IMG/VR virus record: IMGVR_UViG_3300025138_000176 | Location: 1 to 33,321 of that record | Strand: one strand, 5' to 3' | DNA from: a virus | Lineage: Duplodnaviria; Caudoviricetes | Length of the DNA stretch: 33,321 bases | Part shown: piece after piece, positions 7,069 through 29,956 of the stretch | Layout: each line of letters opens with the position of its first letter | Numbering within the stretch: the stretch's first letter is position 1 | The notes under the pieces: generated by a model | Told to the model about the DNA's origin: nothing | What the model saw: only the letters and a program-made list of their open reading frames with translations | Database searches by the model: none | Translations under genes and position numbers: made by a program

Positions 7069-7478
7069 GAATAGGTTTAACTGCATCAACATTTGATTTA
7101 CTACATGCTGGCCACGTTGAAATGTTACGTGATGCGAAAGCTCAATGTGATTATCTTATTTGCGCATTGCAAATCGATCCAAGCATTGATCGCGCTGAAA
7201 AGAATAAACCAGTTCAAAGTATTGTAGAACGATACACCCAGCTTCAAGCTGTTAGATTTGTAGATGAGATCATACCATATCTCAGCGAATTAGATCTTGA
7301 AGATATATTACAAATGAGAAAAATCGATACAAGAATTCTTGGTGTAGAATATCGCGATAAAGATTTTACAGGTAGAGATATTTGTAAAGCACGCGATATC
7401 GATTTATATTTTAATAAAAGAGATCACAGGTTTTCAACTAGTGGTTTAAGAGAAAGAGTACAAAATGCAAGTAAGTGA
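7065..7478 (+). CDS. Glycerol-3-phosphate cytidylyltransferase (TagD)-like HxGH nucleotidyltransferase
   Basis: STFDLLHAGH, ERYTQL.AVRFVDEI and a C-terminal RDHRFSTS motif. Confidence 0.88.
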   Translation: MRIGLTASTFDLLHAGHVEMLRDAKAQCDYLICALQIDPSIDRAEKNKPVQSIVERYTQLQAVRFVDEIIPYLSELDLEDILQMRKIDTRILGVEYRDKDFTGRDICKARDIDLYFNKRDHRFSTSGLRERVQNASK

Positions 7479-8148
7479 TATTCGAAACTATTTTATAAAG
7501 GAGTTAAAAGATGAAAGATTCACAACCGACAAAACTGGGCAACGTACAATTGAAATGCTTGGCAGTTCATTTAGCGCAGACGAACCTTCCATCTTCGGAG
7601 TTCCAAACGAGGAGTACATTAATGCAGAAATACTCTGGTATATGTCTCACAGCCCTAATATTAATGACATTTATAGTGGTGATCGTGAACCTCCCTTAGC
7701 ATGGAAATATAGCGCAAATAAATATGGTGAAATAAATTCAAACTATGGTCTGCTGATTTATTCTGATAAATACTTTCAGCAATATGGTATGGTACTCGAT
7801 GAGCTGATTAGAAACAAAGACAGCCGTCGAGCTTCTATGATATACCAAAGACCATCAATATGGTTGGACTATGAAGAAAATGGTAAAAACGATTTTATAT
7901 GTACTAATGCCGTTACTTATTACATTCGCGACAGTAAGCTACACGCAGTGGTTCAAATGCGCTCAAACGATGTCGTGTTCGGATATAAGAATGACTATGC
8001 TTGGCAGCTTTATGTTTTAAAACAATTAATAAAAGATTATAATGACTTTCATTCGTTATATGAAGATAGTCAAATTTCAATTGGTAATATAACTTGGCAA
8101 GTTCAAAACTTGCATGTATATGAAAAGCATTTTGATCTTGTCAAATAA
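7465..8148 (+). CDS. 42: dCMP hydroxymethylase (T4 gp42-like, thymidylate synthase superfamily)
   Basis: DFICTNAVTYYIRD...MRSNDVVFGYKNDYAWQ...NLHVYEKHF closely follows T4 gp42. It has Asp (KND) at the specificity position, which selects dCMP rather than dUMP. Confidence 0.88.
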   Translation: MQVSDIRNYFIKELKDERFTTDKTGQRTIEMLGSSFSADEPSIFGVPNEEYINAEILWYMSHSPNINDIYSGDREPPLAWKYSANKYGEINSNYGLLIYSDKYFQQYGMVLDELIRNKDSRRASMIYQRPSIWLDYEENGKNDFICTNAVTYYIRDSKLHAVVQMRSNDVVFGYKNDYAWQLYVLKQLIKDYNDFHSLYEDSQISIGNITWQVQNLHVYEKHFDLVK

Positions 8149-8975: not shown

Positions 8976-9206
8976 ATGATTATAAACGACCAATATAACA
9001 GACCATCTAAACTACAAGAAATCTTTGACGAGTTTCGTTCTTTAGAAACTCAAAACGATAGAATATTATTTTTTGACAATCCAGAAAATATATCTAAAAT
9101 GTCAGAATTTGACATTAAGATTGAAAATTGTAAAAAAGCGCATATCGCAGTTTGGGATAAAGCTTTCTCAAAACGACCTTGGGCTGGTCTACAACAGGAA
9201 ATATAA
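8976..9206 (+). CDS. Hypothetical protein
   Basis: GAGGA RBS, then ATG at 8976. Confidence 0.7.
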   Translation: MIINDQYNRPSKLQEIFDEFRSLETQNDRILFFDNPENISKMSEFDIKIENCKKAHIAVWDKAFSKRPWAGLQQEI

Positions 9207-9207
9207 T

Positions 9208-10299
9208 ATGAAAAAAATATTAGTGACTGGTATGAACCATGAACAAACTCGTTATGACGGTTACTTAAAAAAACGTATTGGCGTAATTCTATGCCACTAC
9301 GGTTTAACACGTTGTTTAGAAGATTTAAACTTCGAAGTTGAACAAAGACATGTTCAACCCGGAGAAGATATATCTCATTACGATCATGTGATTGTATATC
9401 TACATAGTCCTAATGGTTTTTGTCAACGCATCTTTGACGGCCTATGGGCGTTAAGTCAAAGACCAGATGCTATACTTGGTTTTGATGATTGGCAAGTTAA
9501 AGATATTTGGAATGGTGTAATTGGATATGGCAAAGCTTTAAAAGAACGTCCTGACTCTGCATACCGTGGTCATATTCTTGATCAGTATCATACAGTCAAA
9601 GATGTAAATCAAGTGAAGAAGTATCACCAAGCGTATATTGATGCAATCGATATGGTTGCTGAAAAGAAAAATAAAATTTTAATGTGTGCTTTTTCTGGTG
9701 GTGATTTAAGTAAGCTAATGGATTATCCACAAGAACTTGTTTATGGTTTTAATCCTAATCCATATCATCTTAATCGTTCTCATGAAAACAATTATGGATT
9801 AGAATCAGGTGGACTCGACAATTTCTTCGGTGGCCCTGAAGCTCCATCTTCAGAAAAGAAATCAAAAGCATGGATATTTAGTTCGTTAGTACAAACTAAA
9901 ACTCGTAAATGGCTTGATAAATTAGAATTAAACTGGGAAACAAGAATTTATGGTGCTCAGCGTGGAGCATATAAAACTGAAAGATTAACTGAAGATAAAA
10001 TGGTACAAGAATATGAAACCACATGGGGTAACCTAATGCCAGCATACGATCATTCTGGATCTGGTTGGTGGAGAACTCGAGTGTTACAATGTGTTGAAGC
10101 TCGATCAATTACAATATGCGATCCTGAAGAAGGTAAAGTTTATGGAGAAGAATTCCTTGTTACTCCAGCAGAAATTGAAGAAATGAATGATCAGCAGCTA
10201 TGGAACAAAGCAAATGCGCAACGTGAAAACTTCTTAGATAATCACCCACTAAATAGAGATATAACAAAACAAGAATTAGCGGAGGTCTTAAATGGCTAA
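9208..10299 (+). CDS. Putative DNA glycosyltransferase, T4 beta-glucosyltransferase (BGT)-like GT-B fold
   Basis: Similar size to BGT, with colinear matches recalled from it: DISHYDHVIVYLHSPNGF~DVNDYDRLIVVNSSINFF, ILGFDDW~YYLFTDI (catalytic Asp) and WWRTRVLQCVEARSITICDPEE~FITLRVWETMASDAVMLIDEEF. Start at ATG 9208 after AGGA. Confidence 0.7.
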   Translation: MKKILVTGMNHEQTRYDGYLKKRIGVILCHYGLTRCLEDLNFEVEQRHVQPGEDISHYDHVIVYLHSPNGFCQRIFDGLWALSQRPDAILGFDDWQVKDIWNGVIGYGKALKERPDSAYRGHILDQYHTVKDVNQVKKYHQAYIDAIDMVAEKKNKILMCAFSGGDLSKLMDYPQELVYGFNPNPYHLNRSHENNYGLESGGLDNFFGGPEAPSSEKKSKAWIFSSLVQTKTRKWLDKLELNWETRIYGAQRGAYKTERLTEDKMVQEYETTWGNLMPAYDHSGSGWWRTRVLQCVEARSITICDPEEGKVYGEEFLVTPAEIEEMNDQQLWNKANAQRENFLDNHPLNRDITKQELAEVLNG

Positions 10300-11248
10300 A
10301 ATATGTATTACAGGCGGAGCAGGTTTTATTGCGTTTCATCTCGCATCTAAGTTGTATAACGAAGGGCACAACGTAATTGCTTTTGATAATTTTAATAATT
10401 ATTACGATCCAACACTCAAAAGAGATAGAGCGGATATTTTATTTAAAGACTTTGGTATTGATGTTCGAGAAGTTGATTTATGCAATAGAAAAAAATTAAT
10501 TGATTTTATGCGAGATCACAAACCAGATGTTGTTGTACATTTAGCAGCCTATGCTGGTGTTAGACATTCTTTAGATTGTCCAGATGATTATATTCAAAAC
10601 AATATTGTCGGTACACATAATTTAATTTCAGCTTGTAATATAGCATGTGTAGATAAAGTTATCTATGCGTCAACTTCATGTGTTATGGCTGGTAATACTC
10701 TTCCATGGAACGAAGATGAAAAGTTAGGTGTAGCAAAAAACCCATACGGATATTCTAAAGCTACAAATGAAGCGCAAATGATATCATCAAAAATTAATTC
10801 AACAATTGGCTTACGCTTCTTTACAGTGTACGGTCCATGGGGTAGACCTGATATGGCATTATTTGATTTTACAAATAATATTGTAAAAGGCAATCCAATT
10901 GAATTATATAATTTCGGCGATATGATTCGCGATTTTACTTACGTTGAAGATATTGTAGAAGGTATTAACGTAGTTATCGATAGAATTATATTGAGTGAAG
11001 ATATAAACGAAATCTATAATATTGGTTATGGAGATCAAGTTCAGTTAGTTGATTTTGTCGATCACATTGAAAAAAATCTTGATCGTAAAGCAATTCGTGA
11101 ATTAGTTCCAATGCACCCTGCTGACACTCAATCAACATGGTCTGACACTACTAAGTTAAGAAATTTAGGATGGAAACCTAAAACACCGATTGAAGAAGGC
11201 GTAGCTAATTTCGTAAACTGGTATAAGGATTATTACAATGTCAATTAA
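10292..11248 (+). CDS. NAD-dependent epimerase, UDP-glucuronate 4-epimerase-like
   Basis: TGGAGFIA, HLAAYAGVRHS, YGYSK (YxxxK), GLRFFTVYGPWGRPDMA and RDFTYVEDIVEG are characteristic of the GAE/WcaG subgroup. Confidence 0.9.
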   Translation: MAKICITGGAGFIAFHLASKLYNEGHNVIAFDNFNNYYDPTLKRDRADILFKDFGIDVREVDLCNRKKLIDFMRDHKPDVVVHLAAYAGVRHSLDCPDDYIQNNIVGTHNLISACNIACVDKVIYASTSCVMAGNTLPWNEDEKLGVAKNPYGYSKATNEAQMISSKINSTIGLRFFTVYGPWGRPDMALFDFTNNIVKGNPIELYNFGDMIRDFTYVEDIVEGINVVIDRIILSEDINEIYNIGYGDQVQLVDFVDHIEKNLDRKAIRELVPMHPADTQSTWSDTTKLRNLGWKPKTPIEEGVANFVNWYKDYYNVN

Positions 11249-12062
11249 TATTGCTATCATTGGTCATGGGTATGTAGGGAAAGCTGTTGATCATGGCTTT
11301 TCTACGCGTTTAGTTACAAAACATATTGTTGATCCAATATATGGAACAACGATTGAAGAGCTTAAAGGCAAAGTAGAATTAGATGCAGCTTTTGTTGCAG
11401 TGCCTACACCTTTTGGAAAAGACGGCAAAATAGATGCTTCGATCGTAAATAAAGTAGTTGATGATCTTGCTTATTTTAATTGTCCAATCGTAATTAAATC
11501 AACTACTACACCAGACGTAGTTGAATGTTTATACACCGTTAACGAAATGGTAGTTTTTAATCCAGAGTTTTTAACTGAAAAGAACGCACTGCACGATTTT
11601 ATTAATCCTCCAATGCATGTTCTTGGTGGAAAAAGAAAATATACTAATATGGTTTTAGATTTATACGAAAATCATTCTCAATGTACACCTTGTCCAGTAT
11701 ATCATATGACTGCAAAAGAAGCTGCATTTGTAAAGTACGGAATCAATTCTTTTCTTGCAACTAAAGTTCTTTGGATGAATCAATTTAAAGATGTAGTAGA
11801 TCAATACGGTGGTAAATATAATGTGATTGTAAATGCATTAGGTTCAGATCCACGTATTGGACATAGTCATACTCAAGTTCCAGGGCCAGACGGTCGTAAA
11901 GGTTATGGTGGCGCTTGTTTTCCAAAAGATACAAAAGCATTTTCAGCTTTTAGTCAAGGTGAACTTACTGTTCTTGATGAAGTAATTAAATCTAATAATA
12001 AATATAGAAAACAATACGATTTAGATGATCGTGAAAAAGAACAGAAAGTGAAATATGACTAA
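11238..12062 (+). CDS. ugd: UDP-glucose 6-dehydrogenase-like (short form lacking the C-terminal domain)
   Basis: GHGYVG, VPTP, KST, NPEFL, VKYGINSFLATK, DPRIG and GYGGACFPKD with the catalytic Cys. Only 274 aa. Confidence 0.88.
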   Translation: MSINIAIIGHGYVGKAVDHGFSTRLVTKHIVDPIYGTTIEELKGKVELDAAFVAVPTPFGKDGKIDASIVNKVVDDLAYFNCPIVIKSTTTPDVVECLYTVNEMVVFNPEFLTEKNALHDFINPPMHVLGGKRKYTNMVLDLYENHSQCTPCPVYHMTAKEAAFVKYGINSFLATKVLWMNQFKDVVDQYGGKYNVIVNALGSDPRIGHSHTQVPGPDGRKGYGGACFPKDTKAFSAFSQGELTVLDEVIKSNNKYRKQYDLDDREKEQKVKYD

Positions 12063-13245
12063 TTATGCAAGTATTGTACCACTCATTGGCGGAGAAACTA
12101 TCGCAATGCAAAACGTACTTGGGAAAAGGCCTGAGTACATTTTATCCTATGAAGAATTTGAAGCAAACGATAAACACCTATTGGAATATTATAAAAACGA
12201 AGTTCCCTATCATCTTCTCAACGGCGATAAGCTTCCTGATATTAAGTCTGTTGATATTGTTAACACTGTCTGTCCTTGTGCTGGTTTGTCTAGTCTCAGT
12301 CCTACTAGTAACTCTGAATCTACTACAAACGATTGGATGCGTACTAGTGCAGAGTATATACTTGGTTCTGTCTCACCCAAAGTTTTTTGGGGAGAAAACG
12401 CACCAAGACTGGCTAGCAAGATGGGAGAACCAATTGTCAAAGATTTACGAAAAATTGGACAAAAGCACGGATACACTTTTTCAATATTTAAAACAAAAAG
12501 TTTACTCCATGGGCTTTCTCAAGTAAGAGATAGAACATTTTATTTTTTCTGGAAAGGCGATAAAGTTCCTCAACTTGAATATATAAATCGTAAGCATGAA
12601 AAAATAGAAGATGCTATTTGTGATGTTAAAAGAAATCCAGATGATCCTATGAATGTACTTACGAACGATGCTGTACCAAGTCAAAATCCATACTACGCAT
12701 ATGTTTTAGAAAAATTAAATAAAACTCATAGGCAGTTTGCATCAAGTATTGATAAAACAACTAATCCACTTGAATGGATTTACAAAAATGATTCTTTTGT
12801 AAAAGCAGCTGATTGGATGAGACAAAAAGGATTTGACAAAGACGCAGATAAATGTATAAGAAAACATGATAAACTTCAATCAGGAGGTAATATTATGTGG
12901 CACAATATAGAAGTTCCAAAAGATCACATTGGTGCTTTTGTTGGTCATAGGCCAACTCAACTAACACATCCGTGGGAAGATCGTTTTCTTACGATTCGTG
13001 AATGTCTTTCATTAATGAAAATGCCAGACGATTTTATTCTTCAAGGAGGACGTAAAAATTTAAATCACATATGCCAAAACGTGCCAGTCACTACAGCGCA
13101 AGATATGGCTAAACAAGCAGTTGCTTTTGTTGAAGGAAGATTAGACAATCAACTTTGGCAACAAGATTATATGTCTCAAGATAACAGAAGAGAATGTATT
13201 ACAAGTGAAAATAGTAGTGTACAATTAGATGAATTTATGGTATAA
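12055..13245 (+). CDS. C5-cytosine DNA methyltransferase-like protein with atypical motif I
   Basis: PCAGLS (IV), ENAP (VI), QVRDRTF (VIII), RFLTIRECLSLMKMPDDF (IX) and ICQNVPV (X). Motif I reads SIVPLIGG instead of FxGxGG. Confidence 0.82.
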   Translation: MTNYASIVPLIGGETIAMQNVLGKRPEYILSYEEFEANDKHLLEYYKNEVPYHLLNGDKLPDIKSVDIVNTVCPCAGLSSLSPTSNSESTTNDWMRTSAEYILGSVSPKVFWGENAPRLASKMGEPIVKDLRKIGQKHGYTFSIFKTKSLLHGLSQVRDRTFYFFWKGDKVPQLEYINRKHEKIEDAICDVKRNPDDPMNVLTNDAVPSQNPYYAYVLEKLNKTHRQFASSIDKTTNPLEWIYKNDSFVKAADWMRQKGFDKDADKCIRKHDKLQSGGNIMWHNIEVPKDHIGAFVGHRPTQLTHPWEDRFLTIRECLSLMKMPDDFILQGGRKNLNHICQNVPVTTAQDMAKQAVAFVEGRLDNQLWQQDYMSQDNRRECITSENSSVQLDEFMV

Positions 13246-16602: not shown

Positions 16603-16865
16603 CAAATAAATTTACACAGGACATGACTGGCACAGGACATTACGTATACGGAATTGAATATGAACCACGAATAGAAGATCCAGTGATTGTTGCTCGTTTT
16701 GATACTAAAGACGAAGCAGAACAACATATGGAAAAAATCAAAACTCAAAATCCTAAAGCGGCAAAACACCATAGAATTATAGAAGAAACAACTGATGATG
16801 AACCACAAAGGTATTATGATTGGATGTTATGGAAACTAAAACAAAAGAAAGAAGAAGGACAATGA
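16599..16865 (+). CDS. Hypothetical protein
   Basis: 88-aa ORF with GGAG RBS and ATGA overlap. Confidence 0.75.
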   Translation: MTNKFTQDMTGTGHYVYGIEYEPRIEDPVIVARFDTKDEAEQHMEKIKTQNPKAAKHHRIIEETTDDEPQRYYDWMLWKLKQKKEEGQ

Positions 16866-17548
16866 ATGTTAGGCTTATATCTTATTCCCAAACAAACACT
16901 TACAACGTCGGTGGATTATACGTCGGAAACGATATGCAAGAACTCATCGCGTATTGTGCCCGTGTCTCCAACCCATCAAACCAAATTAATGAAGAAACCT
17001 CGGAAAAATTATTACGATATCTCATCAAACACAAACACTGGTCGCCATTCGAAATGGTTAGTGCTTGCTTAGAAATTGAAACATATAGAGACATTGCAAG
17101 ACAAATTTTAAGACATAGATCGTTTTCATTTCAAGAATTTAGTCAAAGATACGCAGATCCAACAAAAGATTTCTCGTTAAATATAGATAATTTACGCAAA
17201 GCACGTCTTCAAGATACTAAGAATCGCCAGAACTCAATTGAAGTTGATGACGATAAATTACAACTTGAATGGCAGCAATCTCAAATGCGTATATATCATA
17301 TGTCAAAAAAAGAATATGATGCAGCAATCAAACTTGGTATTGCAAAAGAACAAGCTCGAGCTTTATTACCAGAAGGCATTACTGAATCTCGTTTATATAT
17401 GAATGGATCTATTCGTTCTTGGATTCATTATGTTGAATTAAGGTCTGGTCCAGAAACTCAAAAAGAACATAGAGACATTGCAATTGCTTGTGCTAAAGCC
17501 ATTCAACCTATATTTCCTATGATAGATGAGTTTAGAATCTGCAAATAA
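16862..17548 (+). CDS. thyX: Flavin-dependent thymidylate synthase
   Basis: HWSPFE, RHRSFSFQEFSQRY, EQARALLP and TQKEHR. Start placed at the ATGA overlap at 16862. Confidence 0.97.
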   Translation: MNVRLISYSQTNTYNVGGLYVGNDMQELIAYCARVSNPSNQINEETSEKLLRYLIKHKHWSPFEMVSACLEIETYRDIARQILRHRSFSFQEFSQRYADPTKDFSLNIDNLRKARLQDTKNRQNSIEVDDDKLQLEWQQSQMRIYHMSKKEYDAAIKLGIAKEQARALLPEGITESRLYMNGSIRSWIHYVELRSGPETQKEHRDIAIACAKAIQPIFPMIDEFRICK

Positions 17549-20383: not shown

Positions 20384-20392
20384 ATATTAACA

Positions 20393-20436
20393 CGTTCACC
20401 CGAAAGGGCGGAAGTAGGCAATCGCTGAAGGAACGC
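20393..20436 (+). ncRNA. Glutamine-I riboswitch aptamer (glnA RNA motif)
   Basis: CGUUC-A-[CCC GAAA GGG]-CGGAAGUA-[GGC AAUC GCU]-GAAG-GAACG-C. This gives a P1/P2/P3 three-way junction with an E-loop (AGUA/GAA) matching the glnA consensus. Confidence 0.88.
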
Positions 20437-20464
20437 ACCTAACTTTAAAAGAGGAGGGTGGCAT

Positions 20465-20560
20465 ATGACTTACAGACCATTTCAATGGAAGATGTTTGTT
20501 AAAGCACGTAATATTGCTTTAGTTCATAAACTGTTAAATTACCGTAGACATTATGCATAA
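20465..20560 (+). CDS. 31-aa basic peptide under riboswitch control (MTYRPFQWKMFVKARNIALVHKLLNYRRHYA)
   Basis: Strong GAGGAGG RBS immediately downstream of the aptamer. Confidence 0.7.
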   Translation: MTYRPFQWKMFVKARNIALVHKLLNYRRHYA

Positions 20561-20565
20561 AGTTG

Positions 20566-20594
20566 TGTACTTTTGTACATTTTTGTGTTATAAT
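20566..20594 (+). promoter_or_regulatory. sigma70-type promoter for tmRNA
   Basis: TGTACT-17 bp-TATAAT with extended TG. Confidence 0.7.
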
Positions 20595-20600
20595 ATATAG

Positions 20601-20995
20601 TATATAACGATGAAACAGAGCGAAAGGTTTGCTGGACTCGGGGGCGGTACCCGACAGCTCCACCATAAAAACTTGAAAGGTACATTATGAGTAAAGATAA
20701 ATATCACCATTGGGTATATGCTGCAGACGACAGCATGAATAAGACGTTGAAGTTTATAATATATTGCGTGTATGCTTATGGTGCATATATTTTTTTTAAT
20801 GAATTATTTACCAAGTTTTTCTGATGGGGCTGAAATAGGATCGACAGAGACGAAATAGCGATGTGGAGTTATCCGGATGTAAGCTCGGTTAATGCGAACA
20901 AAACGATAAATGCAAACGATAATTTTGCACCTCAAGAGTTAGCGCTAGCCGCTTAATTCTTATGAGCCAGCCGGAGCTTGGAAACAGAATCCGGC
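20601..20995 (+). ncRNA. ssrA: Circularly permuted (two-piece) tmRNA, alphaproteobacterial type
   Basis: The acceptor piece ends GGAC-UCGGG-GGCGGUA-CCCGA-CAGCUCC-A-CCA (20665). The coding piece starts GGGGCUGAAAUAGGAUCGAC (20826). The 7-bp acceptor stem has G3:U. The tag frame 20912-20956 reads ANDNFAPQELALAA*. The 5' boundary is approximate. Confidence 0.93.
20687..20824 (+). CDS. 45-aa single-TM peptide encoded in the tmRNA intervening segment
   Basis: GAAAGG RBS; MSKDKYHHWVYAADDSMNKTLKFIIYCVYAYGAYIFFNELFTKFF; one base separates the stop from the tmRNA G1. Confidence 0.65.
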   Translation: MSKDKYHHWVYAADDSMNKTLKFIIYCVYAYGAYIFFNELFTKFF

Positions 20996-21004
20996 ACTTT
21001 TTTT
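20970..21004 (+). terminator. 3' hairpin of the tmRNA coding piece / intrinsic terminator
   Basis: GCCGGA...TCCGGC stem followed by AC and a T7 run. Confidence 0.7.
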
Positions 21005-21015
21005 AGGAGATCAAC

Positions 21016-21153
21016 ATGGAGAAGCCTAAAAAAATATGTGTAGTTTGTAATATATATCTTGATGAAGTTTTAAAAGATGTTTATAAATGTCCAAAGTGTA
21101 GGGCAATATTGAATGAGAGATTGGATGATAGGAAAGATAGGAAAGAAAATTGA
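21016..21153 (+). CDS. 45-aa zinc-ribbon peptide
   Basis: AGGAG RBS; MEKPKKICVVCNIYLDEVLKDVYKCPKCRAIL..., i.e. CxxC-13-CxxC. Confidence 0.78.
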   Translation: MEKPKKICVVCNIYLDEVLKDVYKCPKCRAILNERLDDRKDRKEN

Positions 21154-22289
21154 GTAGAAGTGTAGCTATAATAGGTGCCGGTGTTGCCGGAATTACTACA
21201 GCATATTTTTTAACACAAGAAGGATTTAAAGTAAGAGTATTTGATCCGGAAGGCATAGCAAAACAATGTAGTTATGCCAATGGTGGACAGGTTTCAGTGT
21301 GTAATGCTGAAGTTTGGAATACCTATGGCAATATCGCTAAAGGTCTCAAATGGATGACAAAGAAAGATGCTCCATTATATTTTAGAGCAGATCATTGGTC
21401 ATGGGATAAAATCAAATGGATTGCTGGTTTTATTGGAGCTACTGTTACAAATTCTTATGATAAGAATACTCGAAAAACTATTGAATATGCATTAAGAGCT
21501 CGTGAGTTGATGAAAGAAGTTAGTGATATTGACTATCATCAAAACAAGTGTGGCATATTACATATTTACAAAAACCAAAAATCTTGGGATAAAGCAAGAC
21601 AGACTCTAGATAGATTTAAAGATACTGGTTGGGGTAGAGTCGAAATAAGCAATAAGTTTTTAGATGCATACAATATTAAAGATGATGGAGTGATAGGTTG
21701 TACGTATACTGCTGAAGATTCAGTTGGAGACATTTTTACTTTTTGTAATAAGTTATCAGCAAGAATGGAAACTTATAATGACTATAAGTTAATAAATAAA
21801 AGAATAGATAAAGAAGATTTAGAAAATTTACAGAAAAAATATGATGATGTGGTTGTATGCGCAGGAGCTTATACTAAATATTTAGTACCAAGCTTAAATG
21901 TTTATCCTATAAAAGGTTATTCAATTACTTTTAACAATCAACCAAAAATACCAACTTTATCTGTTTTAGATGATGACGCAAAAATAGTTGCTTCACCTTT
22001 TGCAAATGGTGTATTCAGAGTCGCTGGAACTGCCGAATTAGCTGGATGGAATCACGATATTACTATGAATAGAATTACACCACTTTCTAAATGGGTTGAA
22101 GACAATACTTTTGTAGAAGCTCATAATACTGAATTTAAAAAGTGGGCTTGTTTAAGACCAATGACACCAAATATGTTACCTATTATTAAAAAGGTAAATG
22201 GGTTATGGGTAAACACTGGAGCCGGTCATTTAGGCTGGACTATGGGAATGGCATTAGCGGAGAAAATAACATGGAAGATAATGAATTAG
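21150..22289 (+). CDS. dadA: D-amino acid dehydrogenase (DadA/DAO family FAD oxidoreductase)
   Basis: IIGAGVAG, SYANGGQ, YPIKGYS, RVAGTAE, WACLRPMTP and NTGAGHLGWT. TTG start. Confidence 0.88.
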   Translation: MSRSVAIIGAGVAGITTAYFLTQEGFKVRVFDPEGIAKQCSYANGGQVSVCNAEVWNTYGNIAKGLKWMTKKDAPLYFRADHWSWDKIKWIAGFIGATVTNSYDKNTRKTIEYALRARELMKEVSDIDYHQNKCGILHIYKNQKSWDKARQTLDRFKDTGWGRVEISNKFLDAYNIKDDGVIGCTYTAEDSVGDIFTFCNKLSARMETYNDYKLINKRIDKEDLENLQKKYDDVVVCAGAYTKYLVPSLNVYPIKGYSITFNNQPKIPTLSVLDDDAKIVASPFANGVFRVAGTAELAGWNHDITMNRITPLSKWVEDNTFVEAHNTEFKKWACLRPMTPNMLPIIKKVNGLWVNTGAGHLGWTMGMALAEKITWKIMN

Positions 22290-28266: not shown

Positions 28267-28847
28267 TGGCTTTAAAAAGCTTTAGAGATATCGTGCATGA
28301 ATTAAAAATGAAGCGCGATAAAAAATTACCAAATTTAAAAACACCTGTTAAAGGTCCAAAAGGTACTAGTAGATTTTCACGATTTAAGTCTGCAAGTAAA
28401 AGTACCACAAGCTCTGCATCTTTAGGAACAAAGAACGCGTTATCAGCTGGTACTGAATATCCTACAGAAGAATCAGTTGACGAAGCTACATGGCCAGATG
28501 AAATGCCTAATGAAGATGTTGATGTAGATGAAGAACTTTCTATTTCAGCTAGACGTAAACTTTCTAGATTGATGAAACGACGTAAGACTCAGCTTAAAAG
28601 ATCTCGTTTACGCGCTAGAAAACGTATGGCTAAAACTGATGTGTTGAAAAAACGTGCTAGACGTGGAGCTAGAGCTGATGCAGCTAAAAAATTGGCAAAA
28701 GGAAAAGATAAAAAAGATTTATCAATAGCAATGAAAAAGAGCCTTGAAAAACGTTTGGCAATGCCAGCTGTGCAAAGAAGAATTAAAACAATGACAAGGC
28801 GAATGATGCCAACTAAACGTAAGCTGGAGATCTCGCGAAAAAGATGA
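28266..28847 (+). CDS. Highly basic probable head-internal/core protein
   Basis: MALKSFRDIVHE start at the TAATG overlap, acidic VDE linkers, and an Arg/Lys-rich C-terminal half. Confidence 0.72.
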   Translation: MALKSFRDIVHELKMKRDKKLPNLKTPVKGPKGTSRFSRFKSASKSTTSSASLGTKNALSAGTEYPTEESVDEATWPDEMPNEDVDVDEELSISARRKLSRLMKRRKTQLKRSRLRARKRMAKTDVLKKRARRGARADAAKKLAKGKDKKDLSIAMKKSLEKRLAMPAVQRRIKTMTRRMMPTKRKLEISRKR

Positions 28848-29956
28848 TTACAAGTTTTAAAAATTATTTAAGTGAAGAAGAAAAGGTTGTTTATTTTACC
28901 TTTGGTAGAATGAATCCACCAACTGTTGGTCATGAAAAACTTTTAAATAAGTTATCGTCTGCAGCAAAATCAAATCCATATCGAATTTATTTGTCTCAAA
29001 CAAAAGATGGAAAAAAGAATCCATTAGACTATAAGAAAAAAATTAAGTATTCGAGAAAGATGTTTCCTAAACACGCACGTTCTATTATGCTAGATACAAA
29101 AGTAAAAAGTGTGTTTGATATTTCTACAAAACTTTATGATGAAGGATTTAAAAAAGTTATAATGGTCGTGGGTTCTGATAGAACTACAGAATTTGAAACA
29201 CTTTTAAATAAGTACAATGGTAAAAAAGGCAGACACGGATTTTATAATTTTCAAGGCATTAATGTAATATCAGCAGGTGATAGAGATCCTGACGCTGATG
29301 ATGTATCAGGTATGTCAGCATCAAAGATGCGTAAAGCAGCAAGTGATGGAGACTTTCCTCAATTTGTTCAAGGTTTACCAAAGTCTATTTCAAATCCTGA
29401 CGCTAAAAACATATACAACGATGTTCGAAAAGGTATGGGTCTAAAAGAACAAAAAGAATTTAAAAACCATATTCAGTTAGAAACTAGTGCAGCCCGTGAA
29501 AATTACATAGCCGGAAAATATCAAGCTGGAGATCAAGTAGTAATTAAAGAAACAGATGTAGTGGCAACAGTTATAAGACGTGGATCAAATTATTTGATCG
29601 TTGAGTCAAATGGTCAAGTAATGAGAAAATGGATTGATGCTGTTGAAGCAATTGGCGAATATTATAAATATGATTTTGGAACACCTGAAGCAACTAAGTA
29701 CGCAAAGAAAATGACACCAGGATATGAAGCACGTCAAGATCCAGATATTAAAGATCGAAAAGGAGCTCAACCTGCAGGTTACCATACAGGCTTAAAAAAA
29801 TCTACAAAAATTAAAAGAGATGCTCAGTTTAAGAAACAAGGTAAAATGAGAGACGATGATCCTAATGCTTATAAACCAGCACCAGGAGATAAAGGCGCCA
29901 AAACAAAATTAAGTAAGCACACTAAGAAATTTAAACAAATGTTTGGAGACGATTAA
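28844..29956 (+). CDS. Cytidyltransferase-like (TxGH, NMNAT-fold) protein typical of marine T4-like phages
   Basis: FTFGRMNPPTVGHEKL, KNPL, MVVGSDR and SGMSASKMR; N-terminal MITSFKNYLSEE. Confidence 0.82.
   Translation: MITSFKNYLSEEEKVVYFTFGRMNPPTVGHEKLLNKLSSAAKSNPYRIYLSQTKDGKKNPLDYKKKIKYSRKMFPKHARSIMLDTKVKSVFDISTKLYDEGFKKVIMVVGSDRTTEFETLLNKYNGKKGRHGFYNFQGINVISAGDRDPDADDVSGMSASKMRKAASDGDFPQFVQGLPKSISNPDAKNIYNDVRKGMGLKEQKEFKNHIQLETSAARENYIAGKYQAGDQVVIKETDVVATVIRRGSNYLIVESNGQVMRKWIDAVEAIGEYYKYDFGTPEATKYAKKMTPGYEARQDPDIKDRKGAQPAGYHTGLKKSTKIKRDAQFKKQGKMRDDDPNAYKPAPGDKGAKTKLSKHTKKFKQMFGDD

Follow-up and report, generated by a model that had tools for sequence, protein, structure and literature searches.

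Why should a complete small gene lie within a segment that is presumably cut out of a tmRNA precursor? This question is raised by the 33,321-nt viral DNA of IMG/VR record IMGVR_UViG_3300025138_000176 (the window, meaning this whole stretch), in which an earlier note had described the 160-nt spacer of a permuted tmRNA as consisting almost entirely of a ribosome-binding site and a 45-codon ORF. Both were confirmed here (intervening sequence, IVS, at 20666-20825; ORF at 20687-20824), the Shine-Dalgarno (SD) sequence being a weak one. We consider it probable that the 45-codon gene is an optional passenger in a stem-closed loop of the tmRNA spacer, translated from the precursor and excised together with the spacer.

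The permuted tmRNA and its surroundings

ARAGORN called a permuted tmRNA (tmRNA*) with the tag ANDNFAPQELALAA*, and the Rfam scores of 118.8 bits for RF04321 and 114 bits for RF01849 identify it as a permuted (two-piece) tmRNA of the alpha type; the order of acceptor piece, IVS and coding piece fits the covariance models. By reading of the sequence, the encoded CCA lies at 20663-20665, the 160-nt IVS follows directly, and G1 is at 20826 (Table 1). Positions 20826-20832 pair with 20655-20661, including the G3-U70 pair of alanine identity, ACCA occupies 20662-20665, and the tag frame has a hydrophobic Ala-Ala end. Relatives carry TTTACA-N17-TATAAT at the position matching the TGTTATAAT element of the window. 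A promoter scanner listed another nearby site (20574-20601), at chance level (6 found versus 4.6 expected).

A glutamine riboswitch with a 31-codon ORF abuts the tmRNA in the window, and the same unit is located about 1.8 kb upstream of the tmRNA in locus L121 (L121:1155-1330); the target of the riboswitch is therefore likely to be the small ORF and not the tmRNA. A two-piece tmRNA paired with a glutamine riboswitch has been described in phages Melnitz and Mosig (PMC9004378).

Genes for a DNA polymerase, a primase, a UvsX-like recombinase and a DnaB-like helicase place the window in the genome of a T4-like phage, and its polymerase shares 46-53% identity with the polymerases of marine myophages. 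Thymidylate synthases of two distinct families (phrog_160 and phrog_85; 7465-8148 and 16820-17548) are present, as is a block of nucleotide-sugar genes for an epimerase, a UDP-glucose dehydrogenase, a methyltransferase and a cytidyltransferase (9073-13245; 28844-29956). A 379-aa ORF at 21150-22289 has an N-terminal GAGVAG dinucleotide-binding motif and only a weak PHROG match; we take it to resemble an FAD-dependent amino-acid oxidase or dehydrogenase.

Table 1. Features at the tmRNA locus (positions in the window)
Feature	Position	Strand	Basis or remark
Glutamine (glnA) riboswitch aptamer, upstream of the tmRNA and outside the IVS	20391..20439	+	Rfam RF01739, 53.6 bits vs gathering score 35
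Conserved basic 31-codon ORF behind the glutamine riboswitch	20465..20560	+	ORF list
Permuted alpha-type tmRNA, whole	about 20562-20998	+	ARAGORN, Rfam
Extended -10-like element TGTTATAAT, candidate tmRNA promoter	20586..20594	+	inferred, sequence reading
tmRNA acceptor piece: T-arm, 3' acceptor strand, discriminator A, encoded CCA	20601..20665	+	5' end inferred
IVS, 160 nt, cargo slot	20666..20825	+	
IVS closing stem, 5' arm	20667..20675	+	folds; pairing kept in L201
Weak SD GAAAGG, 6 nt upstream of ATG	20675..20680	+	
45-codon gene of a family of small marine-phage proteins; one predicted helix, with residues 23-37 as a marginal membrane segment	20687..20824	+	
IVS closing stem, 3' arm, overlapping last codons K-F-F	20812..20820	+	folds
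TGAT motif preceding G1: ORF stop; predicted ACCA pairing, 3/4	20822..20825	+	kept in ORF-less spacers
Coding piece of the tmRNA, beginning with G1 (the presumed RNase P site); G3-U70 alanine identity	20826..20998	+	3' end approximate
Tag reading frame ANDNFAPQELALAA*	20912..20956	+	ARAGORN

The spacer as an exchangeable slot

Two pattern scans gave at least 238 viral loci, of which 232 were parsed into 157 unique IVSs with a median length of 78 nt among the matches listed. In the cellular control, 112 of 120 loci were parsed, and the 111 unique IVSs had a median of only 29 nt. SD-led ORFs of at least 20 aa, beginning with ATG, were found in 25 of the 157 unique viral IVSs among the matches listed but in none of the 111 cellular ones, and in this respect, as in their shortness, cellular two-piece tmRNAs are unlike the window. 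Shuffled viral IVSs yielded 3.2 +/- 1.6 such ORFs (maximum 7 in 200); since the 25 ORFs among the matches listed belong to only 8 groups, comparing 25 with 3.2 overstates the excess. Apart from the family described below, three cargo groups showed pN below pS in every pair. A closing stem of at least 6 bp was recognized in 135 of the 151 viral IVSs of at least 20 nt among the matches listed.

The tmRNA bodies nearest to that of the window differ greatly in what they enclose. The nearest (L380, 98% identical) has an unrelated 106-nt IVS, that of L027 (96%) carries a homolog, and the spacer is only 31 nt in L114 (94%) and 27-45 nt in L340, L369, L382 and L010 (90-91%). Because the spacers of almost identical tmRNA bodies can be empty or unrelated and ORFs of 8 groups occupy the same place, the comparison supports the view, already offered in the earlier note, that the viral IVS is a cargo slot in which a gene is optional. 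The comparison of related spacers proposed there showed the reading frame kept in homologous spacers and the cargo swapped.

Contigs assembled from marine RNA libraries (8 of 24 listed runs) join 20673 to 20814 through seven letters and represent a short-spacer allele, the stem of which fits the 27-nt spacer of L382 better than that of the window. The core of the ORF (20718-20791; 20695-20769) was not covered in these contigs; the samples appear to hold other alleles, and this has no bearing on expression. Contigs ending at the CCA are explained by graph branching and were set aside.

A second cargo family, of 62 aa, was found in the IVS in 24 loci, beside ARAGORN-confirmed tRNAs in 11 and elsewhere in the rest (best 80 of 92 loci), so the 45-codon family is not alone in having free small genes captured. 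A looser pattern flagged 28 loci of the 62-aa family as flanked by tRNAs, and only the 11 confirmed ones were counted. Members of the 62-aa family are situated between tRNA-Thr and tRNA-Leu genes in L543, L544, L584 and L597-L599; in L600, L602, L606 and L607 they immediately precede the tmRNA promoter. When broken or alternative IVS copies were sought with two DNA scans anchored on the stem, a single partial locus, L521, was gained: among their 15 + 3 matches, five were two known contigs, one was the L521 copy, 11 were unrelated, and the remaining one (L523) was a beta-type tmRNA with a 63-nt spacer.

Many other viral IVSs contain non-coding, stem-rich inserts. Those of L346, L370, L381 and L102 have T-arm-like hairpin ends and resemble tRNA-derived cargo, and tandem arrays (L374, L361; L525:1533-1942) consist of at least two stem-closed cassettes with a minimal acceptor-helix-like piece between them, ending in CCA or a variant. 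L525 is a cultured phage, Sinorhizobium phage Phosso (PV764938.1), in which the tmRNA is unannotated. Unannotated permuted tmRNAs were also found in Roseobacter phage DSS3P8 (L526:545-1535), where the IVS is closed by a stem and measures about 106 nt and a GOLLD RNA directly precedes the tmRNA, and in the cultured Rhodobacter phage RcXuper (L527).

A conserved gene in the spacer

Shuffling of the IVS interior produced an SD-led ATG ORF of at least 40 aa in only 17 of 5000 trials and the protein has a conserved family, so the 45-codon ORF is beyond chance. The family comprises 13 close homologs and 44 cluster representatives, with 11 invariant columns in 64 aligned members. Among 148 homolog loci (every one of the 68 from viruses, and the best 80 of 119 from metagenomes), 10 are inside a tmRNA IVS and 138 are free-standing, the latter with about 44 different downstream ORF starts. 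The 10 IVS copies were reduced to seven distinct ones (the window, L121, L196, L201, L202, L221 and L222); L120, L188, L189 and L386 do not differ from the window in this region, possibly as the same or a duplicate record, and were not treated as independent. L201 and L202 encode an 84-codon form with an N-terminal hydrophobic extension, which is also present in other members (for example, P0022).

Among the 21 pairs of the seven IVS loci, four were saturated and two near-identical, and the 15 measurable divergent pairs gave dN/dS values of 0.05-0.45, in a set found mostly by protein search, which is biased toward intact frames. The median for pairs of free copies was 0.27. Variable columns of the IVS loci at codon positions 1, 2 and 3 numbered 16, 10 and 32 of 36, respectively. 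As judged from this codon-level conservation and from the family, the 45-codon ORF is a real, conserved protein-coding gene, as the earlier note had proposed.

AlphaFold predicted one helix spanning residues 3-44 (pLDDT 93.4). The transmembrane helix claimed previously is marginal as a membrane segment: it has 15 uncharged residues (23-37), a GES 20-mer value of 21.1 and a Kyte-Doolittle 19-mer maximum of 1.38, whereas the median in the family is 1.68 and 53 of 87 members reach 1.6. The peptide, a single helix by prediction, is likely associated with the host inner membrane. Its assignment to any named protein family was rejected, as no usable profile or structure match was obtained: none of 13 family members matched Pfam, PHROGs gave no match for the query and only weak, unnamed ones (E-value = 0.002 or worse) for some of the 64 members, and the peptide matched no PDB sequence and no structure in BFVD, a search that says little for a single helix. 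The best match in the ESM Atlas (0.88) was a hypothetical protein, and the cultured-phage collection gave one weak match (E-value = 0.01). Six longer proteins bear the peptide segment at or near the C-terminus, with no Pfam domain in any of them; these may be fusions or early start calls.

Probable capture and mosaicism

In a tree of 107 unique cores (108 columns), the IVS label needs five changes, at least four of which are forced by well-supported branches, while the AU test did not reject a single IVS clade (p = 0.068). The simplest reading of these sequences would be one capture or two, followed by gene conversion from free alleles. The window and L121 differ at 1 of 18 sites in the leader, 25 of 54 in the middle and 2 of 36 at the end; the middle of the window is nearest to that of the free copy L194 (7 of 54 sites different), and that of L121 to those of the free copy L240 and the IVS copy L196 (4 of 54 each). 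Such clustering of differences was matched by none of 20000 permutations, with segment borders chosen after viewing the alignment, and suggests ongoing gene conversion between IVS copies and free-standing alleles. RNA-structure constraint on the ends was considered as a cause of the mosaic and rejected, since L121 and L196 differ at 12 of 36 sites in the 3' segment.

The free copies L208 and L138 match the 3' junction of the IVS at 14 of 16 bases, which would provide microhomology for entry of the gene from a free copy. TTTACA is found within 90 nt downstream of 34 of 132 free copies (for example, L128-L134 and L228-L230), often in the promoter-like cassette that precedes the tmRNA in L121, L196 and L221. 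By analogy, this cassette is a possible recombination handle like the PeSLs of T4-type phages.

Because the middles are exchanged, dN/dS is weakened as proof of selection in place, and part of the signal may have accrued outside the IVS. Strictly IVS-internal changes are few and their signals small (two synonymous and no nonsynonymous between L201 and L202, one and one between L221 and L222, and 2 of 15 synonymous versus 2 of 66 nonsynonymous sites changed at the ends of the window and L121), yet they point in the same direction as the overall dN/dS.

The same mosaic middles could be accommodated if the gene were a silent hitchhiker in a tolerant loop, with little or no translation, that looks intact owing to recent capture and gene conversion by functional free-standing alleles. 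The SD of the window agrees with this, being weak (GAAAGG, -4.0 kcal/mol against a generic anti-SD) and predicted to be mostly paired (mean unpaired 0.3), as does the 23S rRNA IVS of Coxiella, whose S23p ORF appears not to be made in vivo and which is quickly degraded, according to PMC4990558. However, a purine-rich SD is present in every IVS copy of the family, and SD-start spacing and frame are kept among copies differing at up to 35 of 108 core sites; L121 and L196 show a pS of 0.37 against a pN of 0.08, L201 retains its 84-codon frame with an SD of its own, and the same pN/pS bias is recognized in other cargo families. We therefore regard a silent gene as unlikely.

The closing stem and the position of the stop codon

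The ends of the window IVS form a 9-bp closing stem (20667-20675 with 20812-20820), which was absent from the earlier note and whose 3' arm consists of the codons K-F-F-stop. In L201, both arms are altered and pairing is retained. The TGA of the ORF ends one nucleotide short of G1, so the earlier observation that the stop is one base away from the presumed RNase P site was correct (TGA 20822-20824, G1 20826). The TGAT motif is predicted to pair with ACCA at three of four positions and so to extend the acceptor helix. In the window, the stop also overlaps an ATG (TGATG) that opens a four-codon frame, MGLK*, in the 5' end of the tmRNA (20824-20838), and the same kind of overlap between stop and start follows 29 of the 138 free copies.

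The position is not confined to spacers with genes. Among the matches listed, TGA occupies -4 to -2 in 115 of 126 ORF-less viral IVSs, versus 28 of 104 cellular ones, and in 134 of 151 viral IVSs at least three of the last four bases can pair with ACCA. Of the 25 cargo ORFs among the matches listed, five have a stop that ends at -1 and six one that ends at -6 to -15, and the other 14 run on into the coding piece and stop at +13. The closeness of the stop to the RNase P site needs no regulatory explanation, because TGA is common in ORF-less spacers and other cargo stops are elsewhere.

In L007, L018, L050, L108, L278 and nine more viral IVSs, the cargo frame crosses G1 and stops at +13, and two of the +13-stop families show pN below pS. 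Cleavage by RNase P would leave such cargo as a nonstop mRNA, a tmRNA substrate. It could be imagined that marine T4-like phages use the spacer as a programmable expression cassette and that what becomes of the message depends on where the stop lies, a stop before G1 (11 of 25) giving a complete mini-mRNA and a stop at +13 (14 of 25) a nonstop substrate for the parent tmRNA, with ribosomes that cross the stem tuning mature tmRNA in both; we think this quite unlikely.

Somewhat similar is the idea, close to the influence on processing suggested in the earlier note, that ribosomes crossing the 3' arm and halting beside G1 open the stem and shield the RNase P site, so that translation gates maturation. 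The last codons are indeed the 3' arm, the stop is one nucleotide from G1 in all 10 IVS copies of the family, even in L201 with its 277-nt IVS, and one further cargo family also has stops at -1. Given the established size of the ribosome footprint, a terminating ribosome would physically cover G1, and this might briefly have some kinetic effect on processing. Against this idea stand the TGA of the ORF-less viral spacers and the 20 of 25 cargo ORFs that stop elsewhere, both among the matches listed, the relatives 90-94% alike with spacers of 27-45 nt and no ORF, and the conservation of the protein in 138 free copies without such coupling. Across relatives, neither the ORF nor its stop position is obligatory, and a designed effect of termination beside G1 is not borne out: TGAT belongs to the ORF-less spacers as well, only five of the 25 listed cargo ORFs stop there, and close relatives do without an ORF. 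We consider such gating very improbable.

That the IVS is a structured non-coding rod with an incidental frame is scarcely credible, for although a single long hairpin is predicted for the IVS of the window (z = -3.21 for 20600-20880, tmRNA stems included) and non-coding, stem-rich inserts occur in many other viral IVSs, the interior folds differ among L120, L121, L196, L221 and L201, with the closing stem as the sole shared structure, and changes are concentrated at third codon positions.

A proposed model for a translated passenger

If the gene is a passenger translated from the precursor, a single transcript would run from the promoter-like element at 20586-20594 through acceptor piece, IVS and coding piece, and the SD would be accessible during RNA synthesis, with ribosomes loading ahead of the 3' arm. 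The 9-bp stem and the ACCA:TGAT pairing would then lengthen the acceptor helix. RNase P and the 3'-trimming enzymes, which we presume to be the processors of this tmRNA, would cleave at G1 and expose the CCA, respectively, releasing the IVS with ORF and stop intact. The stem would suffice for processing, and the loop would therefore tolerate cargo. The gene has likely entered by recombination at a short match between the natural end of the family and the spacer 3' arm and taken over the TGA already present there as its stop codon, and its middle is probably still being replaced by free-standing alleles of co-infecting phages. It is plausible that the IVS would be released as a stable, translated mini-mRNA.

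Comparison with known systems

The window shares gene order, acceptor stem, tag and excised IVS with the two-piece tmRNAs of alphaproteobacteria and marine phages (RF01849/RF04321; Melnitz, PMC9004378). The content of the IVS is not discussed in the relevant text on Melnitz (PMC9004378), and the portion of PMC4131195 consulted does not mention intervening sequences. Permuted tmRNAs are processed by tRNA enzymes (PMC11915505), and their IVSs include one with an intact tRNA-Ala gene and another with a repetitive element (Nawrocki et al. 2025, PMC11915505). These are like the window in carrying cargo in the IVS; unlike it, no protein-coding cargo or exchangeable phage slot is found in the main text of PMC11915505.

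In the Coxiella 23S rRNA, as in the window, an ORF is situated within a segment that is excised as a stable RNA matures (PMC4990558). There, however, excision is by RNase III and the ORF is apparently untranslated and decaying (PMC4990558), whereas in the window the host RNA is a tmRNA, processing is presumably by RNase P and 3' trimming, and the gene is one of many unrelated cargo genes with codon-level conservation. Membership of the window IVS in the 23S rRNA type with S23p was rejected on its location in a tmRNA and the lack of a Pfam match; the arrangement is analogous.

The tRNA region of T4 contains small ORFs between its tRNA genes. The ORFs of phage tRNA clusters and the small genes shuffled by PeSLs in T4-type phages (PMC2839356) resemble the gene in the window in being mobile and accessory and in lying between cassettes of conserved RNAs or promoters. 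In the window, by contrast, the cargo separates the halves of a single RNA, which have to pair with each other across it, and the last codons of the cargo are part of the stem.

A search of mainly open-access literature, with the main text of PMC11915505 included, turned up no published description of a tmRNA IVS with a protein gene as cargo. In short, tRNA-Ala and repeat cargo in tmRNA IVSs (PMC11915505) and ORFs in 23S rRNA IVSs (PMC4990558) are already in print; new here are the presence of this family in the IVS, the account of the stop as an anti-CCA motif, the mosaics that point to exchange with free alleles, and the cargo class with a stop beyond the cleavage site.

Implications

A protein gene under codon-level selection is located in a segment that is usually deemed discarded, and annotation that masks tmRNA genes would miss it, because it lies inside the tmRNA spacer. 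The spacer of phage permuted tmRNAs behaves as a small, exchangeable, stem-closed cassette for both proteins and RNAs, likely refreshed by recombination with free alleles. It offers a compact test case in which translation and RNase P processing take place on one precursor, and since cultured alphaproteobacterial phages carry long, stem-closed and so far unannotated spacers, the slot is open to study at the bench.
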